Positions 29,991-35,284 of a stretch of 64,000 bases of DNA are shown here, in pieces. The translations under genes and the position numbers were made by a program. Below the pieces are notes generated by a model. That model made no database searches. It was not told where the DNA came from and saw nothing but the letters and a program-made list of their open reading frames with translations. The stretch is taken from positions 10,988 through 74,987 of the forward strand of contig ONAT01000001.1 of assembly GCA_900315885.1 (NCBI GenBank), read 5' to 3'. Every line of letters starts with the position of its first letter. Within the stretch, counting starts at the first letter, position 1. This DNA comes from an uncultured Erysipelotrichaceae bacterium (GTDB taxonomy: Bacteria > Bacillota_I > Bacilli_A > RFN20 > CAG-826).

Positions 29991-30774
29991 GATTTTTATT
30001 AAAGACATAAAGCACTTTAAGAAAAAAGTGTTATTAATCCTTTCTAATGGTGAAGAAATGGAAATAACAGAAGGTATAGTTATGGATTATTATCTTTTTC
30101 CTAATAAAGAATTAAATAAAGAAGACTTAAATAACATCTCTAAAAGTGGTAATATGACTAAAGCATTAAATAAAGCATATCGCATTTTATCGCATGGACT
30201 TTATACTGAAAAAGAGATTTATTTAAAACTTGTTAAATCCAATTATTCCAAAGATATTATTCGCGATGTTATTTTAAAACTTAAGAGATTAAATTATTTA
30301 AACGACAGTAACTATGTTAATGAATATCTATATAATGCCTCTATTAAAGGATATGGGCCACATAAAATCAAGAATGAATTACTTAAAAAAGGAATAGATG
30401 AAAAAGTGGTTAATAGTATTTCTTTTAACGAAGAAGAAAAGATGAATCAACTTGAAAATATAGTTAAAAAATTAGATAAAAAATATCGTAATTATAATTA
30501 TCAAAAGAAATGTGATAATATTTTACGAAGCTTGATTAATTTGGGTTATGATTTTGATGATTCTAAAGTAGCAATTGATAAATTTGTAACAGAAAATGAA
30601 GAAACAGATGCTTTAGCGTTAGCTAAAGATTTAGAAAAAATATACAAAAACAAATATAAAAAATATAGTGGTAGAGATTTAATTAATGAAGTAAAGCATA
30701 GCCTAATGAAAAAAGGCTACAAATATGATAAAATTAATGCAGCAATTAAGGAGCTTGATGATTATGAAGATTGA
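29968..30774 (+). CDS. recX: RecX family regulatory protein
   Basis: Repeated three-helix units (ALNKAYRILSHGLYTEKEI...; YLNDSNYVNEYL...GYGPHKIKNELLKKGI). GTG start follows GGAGG. Confidence 0.75.
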   Translation: MQLESTGKIFIKDIKHFKKKVLLILSNGEEMEITEGIVMDYYLFPNKELNKEDLNNISKSGNMTKALNKAYRILSHGLYTEKEIYLKLVKSNYSKDIIRDVILKLKRLNYLNDSNYVNEYLYNASIKGYGPHKIKNELLKKGIDEKVVNSISFNEEEKMNQLENIVKKLDKKYRNYNYQKKCDNILRSLINLGYDFDDSKVAIDKFVTENEETDALALAKDLEKIYKNKYKKYSGRDLINEVKHSLMKKGYKYDKINAAIKELDDYED

Positions 30775-31690
30775 AGATTTAAAAGATGGTACAAAAGTTG
30801 ATTTGATATGTCTTGTTAGCAATGTGACAAAGGGTGTATCAAATAACAATTCACAATATTTAAATGTAACATTACAAGATTCTACTGGGACAATCGAAGC
30901 TAAAAAATGGGACGCAACAGAAGATGATATTAATCTCTTTAAAATAAGAAATATTGTTCACATTTTAGGCGAATCAAATATGTATCGTAATAATTTACAA
31001 CTAAAGATTATTAGTGCTGAAGCAATTGAAGATTACAACGCTTCAGATTTTGTGATGTCCGCGCCGGTAGAGGTTAAAACTCTTGAAAATGAATTACATG
31101 AATATTTAAACATGATTAAAGATAAAGATGTTAAAGCAATCGTTGAAGAATTAATTAATAAAAACTATGGCGATTATTTAAAACATCCTGCCGCGACAAG
31201 AAATCATCATGAGTATTGCTCTGGTTTATTATATCATTCAATTTCCGTTACTAAATTAGTGGTAACTCTTGCAGATATATATAAGGATTTAGATAAAGAT
31301 ATCTTAATTGGTGGCGCTTTAATTCATGATTTAGGCAAAATTAAAGAATTATCAGGACCAATTATTCCAACTTATACAACCGAAGGAAAACTTATTGGAC
31401 ATATCTCTATTATGCAAGCAGAGATTAAAGAAGCTGCGGATAAACTAAATATTAAAGGTGAAGTACCAATGCTTCTTGAACATATGATTTTGTCACATCA
31501 CGGAAAGAAAGAATTTGGTTCACCTGTTCTTCCAATGACTAGGGAAGCTTTAGTGCTCAGTATTGCAGATGATTTAGATGCCAAAATGAATATCCTTGAA
31601 AAAGCTTATAAAGACACAAATGAAGGGGAATTTACTAATCGTATTTATCCTTTAGAAGATCGAGCTTTTTATAAACCTAAAAAGAGATAA
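30764..31690 (+). CDS. yhaM: 3'-5' exoribonuclease YhaM (OB fold plus HD domain)
   Basis: N-terminal OB segment (YLNVTLQDSTGTIEAKKWDA) and HD motifs (HH...GGALIHDLGK...SHHG). Confidence 0.88.
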   Translation: MKIEDLKDGTKVDLICLVSNVTKGVSNNNSQYLNVTLQDSTGTIEAKKWDATEDDINLFKIRNIVHILGESNMYRNNLQLKIISAEAIEDYNASDFVMSAPVEVKTLENELHEYLNMIKDKDVKAIVEELINKNYGDYLKHPAATRNHHEYCSGLLYHSISVTKLVVTLADIYKDLDKDILIGGALIHDLGKIKELSGPIIPTYTTEGKLIGHISIMQAEIKEAADKLNIKGEVPMLLEHMILSHHGKKEFGSPVLPMTREALVLSIADDLDAKMNILEKAYKDTNEGEFTNRIYPLEDRAFYKPKKR

Positions 31691-31935: not shown

Positions 31936-32271
31936 TTATTGATTTAATCTATTGAGTTGTTCAGAAACCATATCATTCAATTCAAAAGACCCATCGTTTA
32001 ATATATTAAGTCTATCTTTAATCTTGGTGATTAACTTCATTAGTTCATCGAGGTGTTCCTTTGCCATTAAAATATTAAATCTACATGCATTATTTTCATC
32101 AAACTCATAAAATGAACTATATAATGCGGATGCTTTATCATTTAAATTGTTTATTTCCGAATCATTATCAATAACATCTACTCCTGTAACCAATTTGTTT
32201 TTACTAATACTAAATACATCTTTAATAATAGGGCCGATTAAAAAATCCAATTCTAATTTTACTTTTTTCAT
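31936..32271 (-). CDS. Hypothetical 111-aa acidic helical protein (immunity/antitoxin-like by position)
   Basis: Starts 2 nt after the stop of the toxin-like ORF. No TM segment, no family recognised. Confidence 0.65.
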   Translation of the reverse strand: MKKVKLELDFLIGPIIKDVFSISKNKLVTGVDVIDNDSEINNLNDKASALYSSFYEFDENNACRFNILMAKEHLDELMKLITKIKDRLNILNDGSFELNDMVSEQLNRLNQ

Positions 32272-32273
32272 TT

Positions 32274-32750
32274 CTATTTACCTCCATCCAGTGGATACAT
32301 TGAAACAATATAACCATTGGTACCTACGGCACCAAGTGTATAATATTTTCCTTTGTATAAATATATTTTTTCTAGTCCCACTTTTCCATTACTTAGAATT
32401 TTTTCTTGGGAATGTATGATAACACCTTTTGTAATTACATTTTTAAGATGTACAACTAAATGTTTTTCTTGTATGTTGTGTTTATCAACAAAATCATTAA
32501 TATGTTTTTTGATGTGTTCTAATCCTTTAATTGTGTTTCCTTTTTCGAGCCACACTACTTGACCACTTTTGTCTTTTGCAGTAAAGATAACATCCTTAGG
32601 ATTTATTTTAACACCATTTTTTATTAGATCACCTAGTAAAGGATTATTTTTTATTAGGGCATTTGTTTCATTTTGGAGATTTGCTCTCCCACCTTTTGTA
32701 CCAAGTCCATCTCCTCTTAAACCTTTGCTAAATTTACTACCTTGTCCCAT
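32274..32750 (-). CDS. Hypothetical 159-aa protein, toxin-like (Gly-rich N-terminal linker plus small C-terminal domain ending ...GTNGYIVSMYP)
   Basis: ATG 32750 follows AGGAGGG and overlaps the DUF4417 stop by 14 nt. The longer track start (32867) lies inside the upstream gene. Confidence 0.65.
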   Translation of the reverse strand: MGQGSKFSKGLRGDGLGTKGGRANLQNETNALIKNNPLLGDLIKNGVKINPKDVIFTAKDKSGQVVWLEKGNTIKGLEHIKKHINDFVDKHNIQEKHLVVHLKNVITKGVIIHSQEKILSNGKVGLEKIYLYKGKYYTLGAVGTNGYIVSMYPLDGGK

Positions 32751-33468
32751 ATATCGCACCCTCCTTCTTATACATGTCAATCTTAGAATGAGGAATAATA
32801 ATTTTGATGCCTTTAGATTCAGCATATCCAAAGATTTCATCAAAATTAGATTTGGTAACAAAGCCATAAACGACTATTATTTTAGGCTCTATTCTATCAA
32901 CAGCTTCTTTAAGACCATCTAAGAACATTTTCTTATTTTCTTTGTCTTTAATTTGACCCAAGATGCTAATAGCAATATTAGAACCTTTCATTATTCCGTC
33001 AAAAGAGAAATCATAACAGAAATTAAATGTCCATCTTATATTTGGAATAACGATTGCGTTTGTATTAGCTTTCAACCAAGCAATACATAATCTTGATCTA
33101 TAAACATTAAATATTTGAAGCGCTACTGGGAAATCACCAAAGAGTGAATAATCAGGACCTACTATATATTTAATATTTCTAAATCGTTCACGAAACATAT
33201 TTAATCTTTTTTCATCTTTATAGATGATTGAATTATAGAGTCCGTGAACTCCATCAAATACATGGTCGTACTGATAAAAACAAACACATGTATTTTTTGT
33301 CTTTTGATATTCCTGTAAATCTGAATATAATGCTAAATAATCTATTTCACTAATATCATCAAAGCAACCAATTACAGGTATGTCATAATCACCTTCAAAT
33401 GAAAGTGATTCAAGTAAATAGACACCAAAGATGTCTTTGAAATTATTTCTTACATTGTAACTTGCCAT
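32737..33468 (-). CDS. DUF4417-like protein (function unknown)
   Basis: 243 aa. GPDYSLFGDFPVALQIFNVYRSRLCIAWLKAN..AIVIPNIRW....CYDFSFDGIMKGSNIAIS matches my recollection of the PF14386 pattern. GGAGGA SD. Confidence 0.6.
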   Translation of the reverse strand: MASYNVRNNFKDIFGVYLLESLSFEGDYDIPVIGCFDDISEIDYLALYSDLQEYQKTKNTCVCFYQYDHVFDGVHGLYNSIIYKDEKRLNMFRERFRNIKYIVGPDYSLFGDFPVALQIFNVYRSRLCIAWLKANTNAIVIPNIRWTFNFCYDFSFDGIMKGSNIAISILGQIKDKENKKMFLDGLKEAVDRIEPKIIVVYGFVTKSNFDEIFGYAESKGIKIIIPHSKIDMYKKEGAIYGTR

Positions 33469-33547
33469 AATCTTCCTCCGTTAAATGAAGGAAATGACAA
33501 ACACATGCAAGAAAAAATTTCTGAAAACCAATTAATTTTATGTACAT
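33443..33547 (-). CDS. Candidate 34-aa hydrophobic/cationic small ORF (MYIKLIGFQKFFLACVCHFLHLTEEDYGKLQCKK)
   Basis: ATG is 9 nt after GGAGG. The ORF overlaps the DUF4417 start out of frame and is below the ORF-track length cutoff. Confidence 0.3.
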   Translation of the reverse strand: MYIKLIGFQKFFLACVCHFLHLTEEDYGKLQCKK

Positions 33548-33614
33548 ATTCGTACACCTCCAATTCTTAAAAATTTTTGTGTCAATCTAGCGTTCGTTAA
33601 AAACACACAAAAGA

Positions 33615-33644
33615 TTGATATTTTTAAGACAGTTGTGCTACAAT
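33615..33644 (+). promoter_or_regulatory. Plus-strand promoter of the sRNA candidate
   Basis: TTGATA-18 nt-TACAAT with TGc extended -10. Confidence 0.55.
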
Positions 33645-33650
33645 GTACTT

Positions 33651-33718
33651 GCTGAAGGTGGCATCATAGCATGCTGTCTTAACGGCTCAAGTCACTGTAA
33701 TGGCTTGAGCCGTTTTAT
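33651..33718 (+). ncRNA. Candidate ~70-nt small RNA (promoter-to-terminator unit without an ORF)
   Basis: Lies downstream of the 33615-33644 promoter. It ends at hairpin AACGGCTCAAG/CTTGAGCCGTT (33681-33714) plus TTTTATTT. Only a 3-codon ORF lies inside. Confidence 0.45.
33663..33690 (-). promoter_or_regulatory. Minus-strand promoter facing the sRNA promoter, directed at the sORF/DUF4417 operon
   Basis: Minus strand reads TTGAGC-16 nt-TATGAT with TGc extended -10. Confidence 0.45.
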
Positions 33719-34282
33719 TTAATGCTTACTTATAAATTCAGCAATAAATTCGTTTTCATAATCGTTCAAATCAGACTTGTTGCTAAGAATTCTATTTTCT
33801 GCTGCTTTATATGCATTACAAGCTGCTTCATATGATATATCGAAATCATCAGTAATTTCCATAAAAGAAAAATGGTTAATATATGGCATTACAAGACATG
33901 TTGGAGCAAGTATATACCTTGCAAAATGGTTTGCCAAATCTTCATCTTTTTCATTTGGGTTAAATTCAAGACAAACAACATGCTTGATTTCGTGAGCAAT
34001 TGTTAATCTTATTCTAGCAGTTCCTATTTGATCGTTGTAAAAAGTATAAAATTCATATTTACCATTCTTCTTTTTGAAAATTGTGAAACCATCTTTTAAT
34101 TCTTCTTTACTCGTTATAACTTCCAATTGCTCCTCTGTCAAAGAAGAATATTTGATAAGGACAATATTTAATTGCTTGGCTAATTTGAAGACATCTAGAC
34201 GTTTTTCAAAATGACAATAGTCAATTCTTAGTCTTAATGCCAATTCATCCACTTTTTTATAATCCCTACCACTATGATACAT
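33719..34282 (-). CDS. ImmA/IrrE family (COG2856) zinc metallopeptidase
   Basis: HEIKH (HExxH) within IAHEIKHVV, typical size, and the start overlaps the stop of the XRE gene. Confidence 0.8.
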   Translation of the reverse strand: MYHSGRDYKKVDELALRLRIDYCHFEKRLDVFKLAKQLNIVLIKYSSLTEEQLEVITSKEELKDGFTIFKKKNGKYEFYTFYNDQIGTARIRLTIAHEIKHVVCLEFNPNEKDEDLANHFARYILAPTCLVMPYINHFSFMEITDDFDISYEAACNAYKAAENRILSNKSDLNDYENEFIAEFISKH

Positions 34283-34599
34283 TACTTACCTCCGAATAGA
34301 ACTTTTATGATTTCCGCTTTTTGAGCATCATCCAATTTTGATTTGTTACGAGTAACAACGCACAAAGTTTCCTCATATGCATCCGGTTGAACTGCGTTAT
34401 CCATTTCTCCAACTAAATAAGATGTGCTTACATTAAATACTTTAGCAATATTAGCTAATATATCCATTCTAGGTCTTAAATCGCCTGATAGATATCTGCT
34501 GACGGAAGCTTCAGATATTCCAGAAAGTTTGGCCAATTCTTTTTGTGAAATATTATCACGTTCCATCAAACTTTTTACGCGCTCCTTAAACTCTTTCAT
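34282..34599 (-). CDS. XRE-family helix-turn-helix transcriptional regulator (ImmR-like)
   Basis: ISQKELAKLSGISEASVSRYLSG...ANIAKVFNVSTSYLVG. Confidence 0.88.
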   Translation of the reverse strand: MKEFKERVKSLMERDNISQKELAKLSGISEASVSRYLSGDLRPRMDILANIAKVFNVSTSYLVGEMDNAVQPDAYEETLCVVTRNKSKLDDAQKAEIIKVLFGGK

Positions 34600-34637
34600 G
34601 AGTTGTACCTCCTAAGCTTTTATTCTAAAGCAATTCA

Positions 34638-34666
34638 ATTATACCAATTTCATTTCTGCAAGTCAA
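34638..34666 (-). promoter_or_regulatory. Promoter of the XRE-ImmA genes
   Basis: Minus strand reads TTGACT-17 nt-TATAAT with TGg extended -10. Confidence 0.65.
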
Positions 34667-34802
34667 TATGTTTACTTAAATAAATTGTTTTTATAAATTT
34701 GGATTGTGTAAAAGTTGCTATAGTGTAATGCTAATTTATTAAGAATATAAATGATCATTTGAATAAGTTAATATAATTATGTAGTATGAATTTTTAACAT
34801 AT

Positions 34803-34833
34803 AACAAAAGGATTACCCATAACGGATAATCCC
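34803..34833 (-). terminator. hit terminator
   Basis: Minus strand reads GGATTATCC-loop-GGGTAATCC followed by TTTTGTT. Confidence 0.7.
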
Positions 34834-34867
34834 ATCATAAATTTAATATATTCAGTTTTTATTATAA

Positions 34868-35284
34868 TTACATATTCTTTTTAATCGAATCTGCGATTTG
34901 AGGAAGAGATAATTCTCCAAGCAATTTGTTTTCTTTAAATTCGATAACTAGACCATCGGAATTTTTATAACGAGGAATTACGTGAACATGGAAGTGCATA
35001 ACAGTTTGACCAGCAGCAGCGTAGCAATTAGTGAGAATGTTAACACCACTTGCTTTTAAGTTTCTGATTTGTGATTGGCCAATTGTTTGAGCCACATCCA
35101 TGACTTTATGCATGATTTCTTTTGGTGTGGCTAAGAAGTTATCGTAATGTTTTTTACTAACTACTAAAGCGTGTCCTTTGGTTGTTTGAGAAATATCTAA
35201 GAACGCTAAGACATCATCATCTTCATAAATCTTTGCACATGGAATTTCACCACTTATTATTTTACAAAAAACACAGTCATCCAT
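34868..35284 (-). CDS. hit: HIT family (histidine triad) protein
   Basis: CVFCKI...GHALVV...HFHVHVIPR. Confidence 0.92.
   Translation of the reverse strand: MDDCVFCKIISGEIPCAKIYEDDDVLAFLDISQTTKGHALVVSKKHYDNFLATPKEIMHKVMDVAQTIGQSQIRNLKASGVNILTNCYAAAGQTVMHFHVHVIPRYKNSDGLVIEFKENKLLGELSLPQIADSIKKNM

Follow-up and report, generated by a model that had tools for sequence, protein, structure and literature searches.

A predicted antisense small-RNA gene at the junction between an XRE/ImmA switch and DUF4417 cargo in gut Bacilli

Here, we analysed the intergenic region that separates an immA-like metallopeptidase gene from a DUF4417 gene in a 64,000-nucleotide (nt) stretch of an uncultured Erysipelotrichaceae bacterium (CAG-826), hereafter the window (GCA_900315885.1, contig ONAT01000001.1, 10,988-74,987 of the forward strand). 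Comparative sequence data indicate that this region holds, on the plus strand at 33615-33722, a complete gene, from promoter to U-tract, for a small RNA of an undescribed family. That the unit is a real small-RNA gene we regard as highly probable. The predicted transcript is antisense to the immA-cargo junction, whose genes are read on the minus strand. As for its role, we lean modestly toward a cis-antisense regulator, or insulator, that would limit read-through from xre-immA into the DUF4417 cargo, a leaning that takes in the statement as a whole, mechanism included.

Real support for the unit comes from conservation and covariation in related loci, which argue that selection maintains the promoter, the first hairpin (hairpin 1) and the terminator together, as one unit transcribed from the plus strand. 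Two alignments carry this evidence, one of the core subfamily (A3, mean column identity 89%) and one of 17 divergent homologues (A7). In A7, the extended -10 element TGnTAnnAT keeps G13, T15, A16, A19 and T20 invariant and T12, the T of TG, in at least 90% of sequences; the bases next to the invariant positions vary, and the invariant ones are those contacted by sigma-A. By sequence conservation, the predicted promoter is thus of the sigma-A extended -10 kind, with a -35 that is good in the core subfamily only. The terminator stem shows compensatory changes at 10 of 11 pairs in A7, with 94% of cells paired against 28-48% in slid controls and a covariation score that none of 500 shuffles reached; G·U cells outnumber A·C cells (12 vs 2 in the divergent set, 23 vs 2 in the core set). 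Every homologue has a U-tract behind the hairpin, exclusively on the plus strand. In the window, a stem with 7 G-C pairs leads into TTTTATTT at 33715-22, which qualifies the element as a rho-independent terminator, and the immA stop codon (33719-21, minus strand) falls within this tract. Hairpin 1 pairs in 99% of cells when read on the plus strand and in 76% when read on the minus strand. It has double changes at two pairs, and its departures from a perfect palindrome are all transitions that keep pairing solely in the plus-strand RNA (27 G·U and 0 A·C in A7; 44 and 0 in A3). Because G·U pairs occur but no A·C pair does, hairpin 1 appears to be selected as plus-strand RNA, a pattern that fits RNA selection and not a protein-binding palindrome. 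The top of the terminator hairpin, CAYUGCARUG, is conserved while the stem beneath it changes completely; no YUNR U-turn motif was found in it.

Promoter-like hexamers alone prove nothing here, since hexamer pairs are not enriched over shuffled sequence (21 in 32500-35000 vs 16.1 +/- 4.7). Terminator-like sites number 4 vs 0.7 expected, and a perfect inverted repeat of at least 9 nt within 33600-33685 arose in 14 of 1000 dinucleotide shuffles. With its start placed at G33651 from the position of the -10, the predicted RNA begins with a short tail, and a 73-nt RNA folds into two adjacent hairpins (-29.5 kcal/mol, z = -4.9). It is single-copy in its own 1.32-Mb genome. A permissive cmscan against Rfam 15 gave no match overlapping 33600-33725 at E up to 10; in four homologous loci (L022, L037, L038 and L051) no family was found at the RNA at E up to 0.1, the only match being a tRNA elsewhere in L022, and a tRNA/tmRNA search found none at the small-RNA site of the window. 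A coding function was considered and rejected: the sole open reading frame (ORF) of the plus-strand unit with a ribosome-binding site, ATG CTG TCT TAA from 33671 (AAGGTGG-9-ATG), opens 3 codons in the window, opens 10 in L022 and meets no stop before the terminator in L014, and both its ribosome-binding site and its ATG are absent from the divergent subfamilies. A 35-aa plus-strand ORF from TTG 33615 was likewise set aside, as its first codon belongs to the -35 hexamer and precedes the predicted start of the RNA. These results bear out much of a preliminary description of this DNA, which had reported the plus-strand promoter exactly where we find it and, behind it, a terminated RNA of about 70 nt, antisense to the immA/cargo junction and containing nothing but a 3-codon ORF; promoter, hairpins and terminator prove conserved and covarying in about 60 loci. 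The hairpin followed by a T-rich tract that it had noted is also there, with a stem of 14 bp instead of the 11 bp given (table 1).

The family is scattered across gut bacteria. BLAST over 201 family genomes gave two loci about 80% identical to the window across the intergenic region, with XRE and ImmA proteins that differ from the window's. A search with an invariant 20-mer gave 12 genome contigs and 4 metagenome contigs; apart from a few short contigs in bins of other taxa, these belong to gut metagenome-assembled genomes that bear the label Anaeroplasmataceae, Mollicutes or Bacilli. A covariance model built from these sequences (R1) recovered divergent members, at 30-47 bits, in 21 of 401 family genomes; a second, built from the divergent members (R2), recovered the RNA in 59 of 401 order genomes and 23 of 70 genera, at no more than 3 copies per genome, the E-values of the models being rough after a shortened calibration. 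The cassette is accessory, since six other sampled genomes of the window's genus lack the small RNA. Two pattern scans of viral contigs in IMG/VR gave no match and no sign of a phage-borne unit there. As the loci come from metagenome-assembled or draft genomes of related gut bacteria, sequence counts overstate the number of independent events. Three contigs of 2.9-8.1 kb (L015, L018 and L021) carry cassette copies binned to Elusimicrobiaceae, Eubacteriales and Alistipes; these host labels are probably binning errors for a mobile element and not true hosts.

The promoter spacer holds the left arm (P) of an inverted repeat whose right arm forms the 3' half of hairpin 1, a perfect repeat at the positions first reported for it. 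In every subfamily the left arm is complementary to the 3' half of hairpin 1, though the arm sequences differ (left-arm variants AAGACAG..TGCT, GATATGCT(A), GAGATATGCT, (T)GAACATGCT or GAACATGTT, and GAAGACGTGCT). The arms covary across homologous loci, with double changes at three internal pairs; a fourth, outer pair is also changed but mostly unpaired. Watson-Crick pairs make up 135 of 151 cells, so that this pairing, taken by itself, is strand-neutral. A complementarity search over +/-1.8 kb found the promoter-spacer arm to be the only conserved site. We know of no counterpart to a promoter spacer that pairs with the arm of its own gene's hairpin. From one alignment, RNAalifold predicts two folds: the plus strand forms hairpin 1 locally, and in the minus strand the two arms join in a long-range helix beside the antisense terminator hairpin. 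The minus strand of the window folds likewise, the complement of the right arm pairing with the complement of P. Folded singly, 16 of the 17 sequences form this helix; the one that does not, L035, lacks a minus-strand gene downstream of its RNA and has a plus-strand ORF in the cargo's place. Since a minus-strand transcript has C·A mismatches where hairpin 1 has G·U pairs, the complement of the hairpin's 3' half would be free there to pair with the complement of the spacer. Our best reading of the arms is a long-range helix of a predicted minus-strand transcript, one that would have to start upstream of 33682, by read-through from immA or from another upstream promoter.

The arms had also been proposed as operators for the XRE protein, a proposal that found no support. 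They do not track the XRE type: the XRE proteins of L041, L038 and L043 share 61-67% identity with the window's, yet the arms there are GAACATGCT / GAACATGTT, whereas L022-type loci have an XRE without BLASTP match to the window's but the same arms. Arm spacing, moreover, runs from 24 to 41 nt across loci, which disfavours one rigid protein dimer bound to both. Four loci whose XREs are related (window, 34638-34700; L041, L038 and L043) instead carry palindromes or half-sites of the ATTTCAT-N-ATGAAAT type at the xre promoter, in its spacer or beside it, while the immA-DUF4417 intergenic region has none; judged by sequence, these sites probably serve XRE as its operator, in which case xre-immA would be autoregulated. 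A further hairpin (V), between the cargo ribosome-binding site and the small-RNA -35, is found at the same position in all loci with unrelated sequences, its pairs all Watson-Crick; it too is independent of XRE type and was rejected as an XRE operator. A LexA (Cheo) box in GAACATGTTC-type arms, read by eye, was discarded for its wrong spacing.

Table 1. Coordinates of the genes and sequence elements at and around the immA-DUF4417 junction (window numbering).
Feature	Position	Strand	Evidence or remark
Small-RNA promoter, sigma-A-type: -35 TTGATA 33615-20, 18-nt spacer, extended -10 TGcTACAAT 33636-44	33615..33644	+	Scan 10/12 with TG
Predicted small RNA, ~68-72 nt: 4-nt 5' tail, hairpin 1, terminator hairpin, U-tract	33651..33722	+	
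Hairpin 1: AAGGUGGCAU / AUGCUGUCUU, 10 bp incl. 3 G·U, loop CAUAGC	33655..33680	+	
Intrinsic terminator: 14-bp stem 33681-94 / 33701-14, loop CUGUAA (6 nt), U-tract 33715-22	33681..33722	+	
Left arm P, TTAAGACAG, in small-RNA promoter spacer, running into TGCTA	33624..33632		Inverted-repeat search
Right arm, CTGTCTTAA (listed also as CUGUCUUAA), 3' half of hairpin 1	33674..33682		Inverted-repeat search
Variable hairpin V: TTTTGTGT / ACACAAAA	33575..33612		Inverted-repeat search
Candidate minus-strand promoter: TTGAGC 33690-85, 16-nt spacer, TGcTATGAT 33671-63	33663..33690	-	Scan 9/12 with TG
Predicted xre-immA promoter: TTGACT-17-TGgTATAAT	34638..34666	-	Scan 11/12 with TG; spacer holds ATGAAAT half-site
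xre, XRE helix-turn-helix repressor gene	34282..34599	-	Pfam HTH_3 7.5e-14; PADLOC capH 5.4e-12
immA-like M78 metallopeptidase gene	33719..34282	-	Pfam Peptidase_M78 8.5e-5; PADLOC capP 2.8e-7
Intergenic region under study (immA to DUF4417)	33469-33718		
DUF4417 gene, first cargo gene	32737..33468	-	Pfam PF14386 1.2e-36
Toxin-like gene	32274-32750	-	PBECR1 match weak, E = 0.021
Immunity-like gene	31936-32271	-	

The genes around the RNA follow a constant plan. Nearly all loci encode XRE (~105-130 aa), ImmA (~185-260 aa), the RNA on the opposite strand, DUF4417 (~226-243 aa), a toxin-like protein (~125-170 aa) and an immunity-like protein, and in the window the XRE and M78 metallopeptidase genes stand side by side, in the arrangement of a CapH/CapP-type module. 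Set against the 150 best DUF4417 matches of these genomes, 35 of 69 RNA matches have one at a distance of 97-261 nt, and most of the others adjoin a DUF4417-like ORF, as checked by ORF prediction and BLAST. Within this plan the modules are mosaic. The core RNA is found with three DUF4417/toxin sets that are mutually 23-27% identical and with two XRE/ImmA types that have no BLASTP match between them; conversely, L041, L038 and L043 have an XRE like the window's and a different RNA subfamily. The intergenic unit is thus better conserved than either flank and has only itself as a constant partner. Comparison of the loci indicates that the small-RNA unit stays at the junction while the flanking genes are swapped. 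In one locus (L073, G096:C10, 377-464 and 1501-1588), the whole leader module, comprising ribosome-binding site, hairpin V, promoter, RNA and terminator, is duplicated 1.1 kb apart; one copy stands after immA and before a 17-codon DUF4417 remnant with toxin and immunity genes, the other before an intact DUF4417 gene.

The DUF4417 family (PF14386) is itself wider than the RNA, occurring in 142 of 401 order genomes, often in several copies, and among its 150 best matches 35 adjoin an R2-type small RNA. We inspected twelve DUF4417 loci without an R2 match. Those with xre-immA upstream (L082, L083 and L092) have, on the plus strand of the immA-DUF4417 intergenic region, what look like analogous antisense units: although unrelated in sequence, each comprises an extended -10, a hairpin and a terminator with its U-tract, and in L083 and L092 the promoter spacer is again complementary to the 3' arm of the first hairpin. 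In three others (L087, L089 and L091), a protein of about 775 aa precedes DUF4417 instead of XRE-ImmA.

How might such an RNA act? The hairpin of the terminator has no U-tract behind it on the minus strand (AAGACAGCAUGC), and a terminator scan found no minus-strand terminator between immA and DUF4417, as the preliminary description had anticipated; transcripts of xre-immA should therefore run into the cargo. According to the regulator-insulator model that we mildly favour, transcripts from the autoregulated xre promoter, a strong promoter of its own placed behind the terminator of hit, would pass through the junction into the cargo genes. The small RNA, fully complementary to the immA-cargo junction, would pair with this read-through transcript. 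In the minus-strand RNA, the arm helix would loop out the stretch complementary to the 5' tail of the small RNA and the 5' half of its hairpin 1, such that two loops, that of the arm helix and the antisense terminator hairpin, would be presented for antisense pairing. Pairing would be followed by RNase III-type cleavage and decay, and collision with, and occlusion by, the convergent small-RNA promoter would add to the block. In the basal state, XRE and ImmA would be made with the cargo little expressed. Upon cleavage of XRE, by analogy with CapH/CapP, the xre promoter would be derepressed, and the resulting heavy read-through would override the block, crossing and silencing the small-RNA promoter. 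In the window's subfamily, the overlapping minus-strand promoter may add direct promoter competition.

Several points weigh against this model. The cargo ribosome-binding site lies outside the small RNA, so that pairing may lead to decay, to processing or to no effect at all; the start sites, the small RNA and the read-through are all predictions; and many of the homologues are not independent, being metagenome-assembled genomes of related gut bacteria. Two loci (L075 and L077) have the RNA and DUF4417 without xre-immA upstream, so that the cargo can have another promoter. Finally, the complementarity of the arms could in principle be kept at the DNA level, by a protein site or by quasi-palindrome correction. 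A bolder extension would see in the small RNA and the strand-asymmetric leader a transcription-coupled lock, as a general design of DUF4417 toxin cassettes. One DNA segment would form a local hairpin in the plus-strand RNA, by means of G·U pairs, and a long-range helix in the minus-strand RNA, where G·U gives C·A mismatches. A nascent cargo transcript would either be caught by the antisense RNA before its distal arm is made or close the helix and escape. A graded signal from a CapH/CapP-like XRE/ImmA pair would in this manner be turned into all-or-none toxin expression. The design would recur in L083 and L092, cassettes without sequence similarity to the window's; even so, we consider this extension unlikely to hold as stated.

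Each rival to the regulator-insulator model (promoter switch, antitoxin, attenuation, DNA-only feature) fails at least one of the tests made. The one that fares best, though doubtful, is that of the preliminary description, a pair of mutually exclusive face-to-face promoters with the cargo transcribed from the promoter at 33690-33663 and the arms serving as XRE operators. The candidate minus-strand promoter is indeed present where it had been placed, its -35 inside the terminator stem and its -10 in the loop of hairpin 1. Both promoters are TG-extended and their predicted starts (~33651 on the plus strand, ~33656 on the minus strand) lie about 5 nt apart, as close as had been claimed, each promoter falling within the first transcribed bases of the other. 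Its presence in all core-subfamily loci says little, because these are about 90% identical and the 20-mer by which most of them were found itself includes the -10. L034, found by the covariance model alone, is a point in its favour, having TTGAGT-16-TGcTATTAT with TATTAT as a valid alternative -10; so are L075 and L077, in which, for lack of xre-immA, a cargo promoter must exist near the RNA gene. Elsewhere the promoter fades. Its -10 equivalents in other subfamilies are acceptable in part (TATAGT, TAGAGT), in part lack the -7 T (TATAAA, TACAAA) and in part are poor (TATTTG, TGCAAA, TGAAGC, TTGAAA), and the divergent subfamilies have no usable minus-strand -35 with any of these hexamers. Loci of the L035/L037, L038 and L041 types do not retain the promoter (the hexamer being TGAAGC or TTGAAA in those of L037, L038 and L041), and it is weak in most L036-type loci, where the hexamer ends in A; the divergent subfamilies that lack it still keep the small RNA and the mirrored arms. 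The arms, for their part, fail as operators on the grounds of XRE type, spacing and the palindromes at the xre promoter given above. Of the proposed switch there thus stands a well-formed minus-strand promoter in the close subfamily and in L034, and what falls is its presence, with a -7 T, in the divergent ones. In the window's subfamily the promoter pair may be at work; the family as a whole does not conserve it.

An RNA antitoxin or trans regulator, of the type I (par/Fst-like) or type III-like kind, is improbable. Such an RNA would neutralise the toxin, a 34-codon short ORF (sORF) or DUF4417 by pairing with a start region or by binding the toxin protein, and a small convergent RNA beside a toxin operon does resemble a type I layout. 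The par locus of pAD1 (RNA I/RNA II, Fst) and other type I loci share with the window a small convergent RNA, a strong terminator and repeated boxes complementary at more than one place. Nonetheless, we found no conserved complementarity of 8 nt or more to start regions or to other cassette sites, except the promoter-spacer arm, and with no complementarity to the toxin start region the unit falls outside type I. Unlike par, the window's terminator is not bidirectional, and its cargo comprises three proteins that already include a protein immunity factor; one RNA, in addition, accompanies three different DUF4417/toxin sets. The sORF itself, hydrophobic and with a strong ribosome-binding site, lies in the leader upstream of DUF4417 (33443-33547, minus strand), which speaks for this rival, and is confined to the window's cargo type, which speaks against it. 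Over its first ~17 residues it resembles its counterpart in L013 (MxxKxxxxxKxxxxCxC); beyond that point the two frames diverge, and its 3' end passes through a hairpin, UUCCUUC...GGAGGAA (33470-33500), that would sequester the DUF4417 ribosome-binding site, an arrangement that suggests translational coupling.

Slightly less probable again is countertranscript attenuation of the pT181/pIP501 kind, in which the small RNA would bind the nascent minus-strand leader and thereby release the promoter-spacer segment, which could then fold into a terminator upstream of the cargo. The three-way complementarity among the promoter spacer and the 5' and 3' halves of hairpin 1 is what such a mechanism would use, and in the window a second inverted repeat (33565-74 / 33620-29) overlaps the arm in a manner mutually exclusive with arm pairing. 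That repeat was rejected, being AT-rich and not kept outside the core subfamily, and no minus-strand hairpin with a U-tract lies between the arm and the cargo ribosome-binding site, as scanned in the window and inspected in other subfamilies. Lastly, a site without functional RNA, in which DNA-level hairpins (a recombination junction or a protein-binding palindrome) meet chance hexamers in AT-rich DNA, would suit a module-exchange breakpoint without local enrichment of promoter-like hexamers, but is very improbable given the plus-strand sense of the G·U cells in hairpin 1 and terminator, the plus-strand U-tract in every locus and an invariance that falls exactly on the sigma-A contact positions.

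For a cis-antisense regulator at an operon junction, the closest known arrangements are OOP of lambda and sar of P22, with pIN/pOUT of IS10 the closest in promoter geometry. OOP RNA, 77 nt long, triggers RNase III cleavage and decay of the cII mRNA, and sar RNA, of P22 immI, inhibits antirepressor synthesis (PMC5415839). As in both, the window's RNA gene has a predicted promoter and terminator of its own, lies on the opposite strand in an operon near the junction of a regulatory gene with the next gene, and is convergent with the operon promoter; it differs in having no sequence or Rfam relation to either. Coverage differs as well: sar covers a ribosome-binding site and OOP a coding 3' end, whereas the window RNA covers neither and overlaps just the immA stop codon. 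So do the hosts, lambdoid phages in the one case and an XRE/ImmA toxin cassette of gut Bacilli in the other. The sar layout is reportedly that of Liao, Wu and McClure in 1987, and the size of the RNA is said to be about 69 nt. In IS10 (RNA-OUT, pIN/pOUT) and in pCF10 (prgQ/prgX), convergent promoters lie in each other's transcribed region, and antisense pairing is combined with transcriptional interference. Convergent promoters and a stable antisense RNA of about 70 nt are common to these systems and, by prediction, the window; if the minus-strand promoter is used, the transcripts would overlap by about 6 nt here, compared with a reported 35 nt in IS10 and 223 nt in pCF10, and that promoter is not conserved across the RNA family.

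As regards the switch, CapP, stimulated by single-stranded DNA, cleaves CapH and thereby derepresses the adjacent immune operon; the abstract of that preprint describes CapH control at the operon promoter and mentions no RNA component (bioRxiv 10.1101/2022.04.27.489752). In the window, XRE is matched by the capH model and ImmA by the capP model of this ImmR/ImmA-like pair. They differ from it in their place upstream of the cargo on the same strand, with an antisense RNA gene in between, and in the operator-like sites at the regulators' own promoter. Pairs of this kind have been described as purely protein switches of prophages, mobile elements and defence operons, to which the predicted antisense RNA gene would add an RNA layer, conserved between switch and toxic cargo in one gut-bacterial order (at least 59 of 401 genomes). 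If the RNA gates read-through, it would explain how a repressor and a toxin can share a transcription unit without leakage. The small RNA also offers an entry point to the uncharacterised, phage-associated DUF4417 family, and the G·U / C·A asymmetry, by which one DNA segment would serve two transcript folds, lends itself to a clean test of selection acting on both strands.

In the window, the cassette forms a minus-strand block of about 3 kb flanked by yhaM (plus strand, 30725-31690) and hit (minus strand, 34868-35284). The third cargo gene of other loci often encodes a Cys_rich_CPCC protein (1.4e-21), a family that we take to comprise immunity proteins of polymorphic toxin systems. In several loci (L017, L022, L036, L038, L039, L051 and others), such proteins follow second cargo proteins that share a Gly-rich N-terminal tag, M-A/G-T/S-K-G-A-S-x-R-Y-G-N-T, and have no trafficking domain. 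In L093 (1382-2605, G173:C1, minus strand as oriented here), another of the inspected DUF4417 loci without an R2 match, the ImmA-like peptidase and DUF4417 are fused in a single 407-aa ORF directly after the XRE gene, with no intergenic region and thus no room for a small RNA; this fusion hints that DUF4417 may work together with the ImmA/XRE switch.

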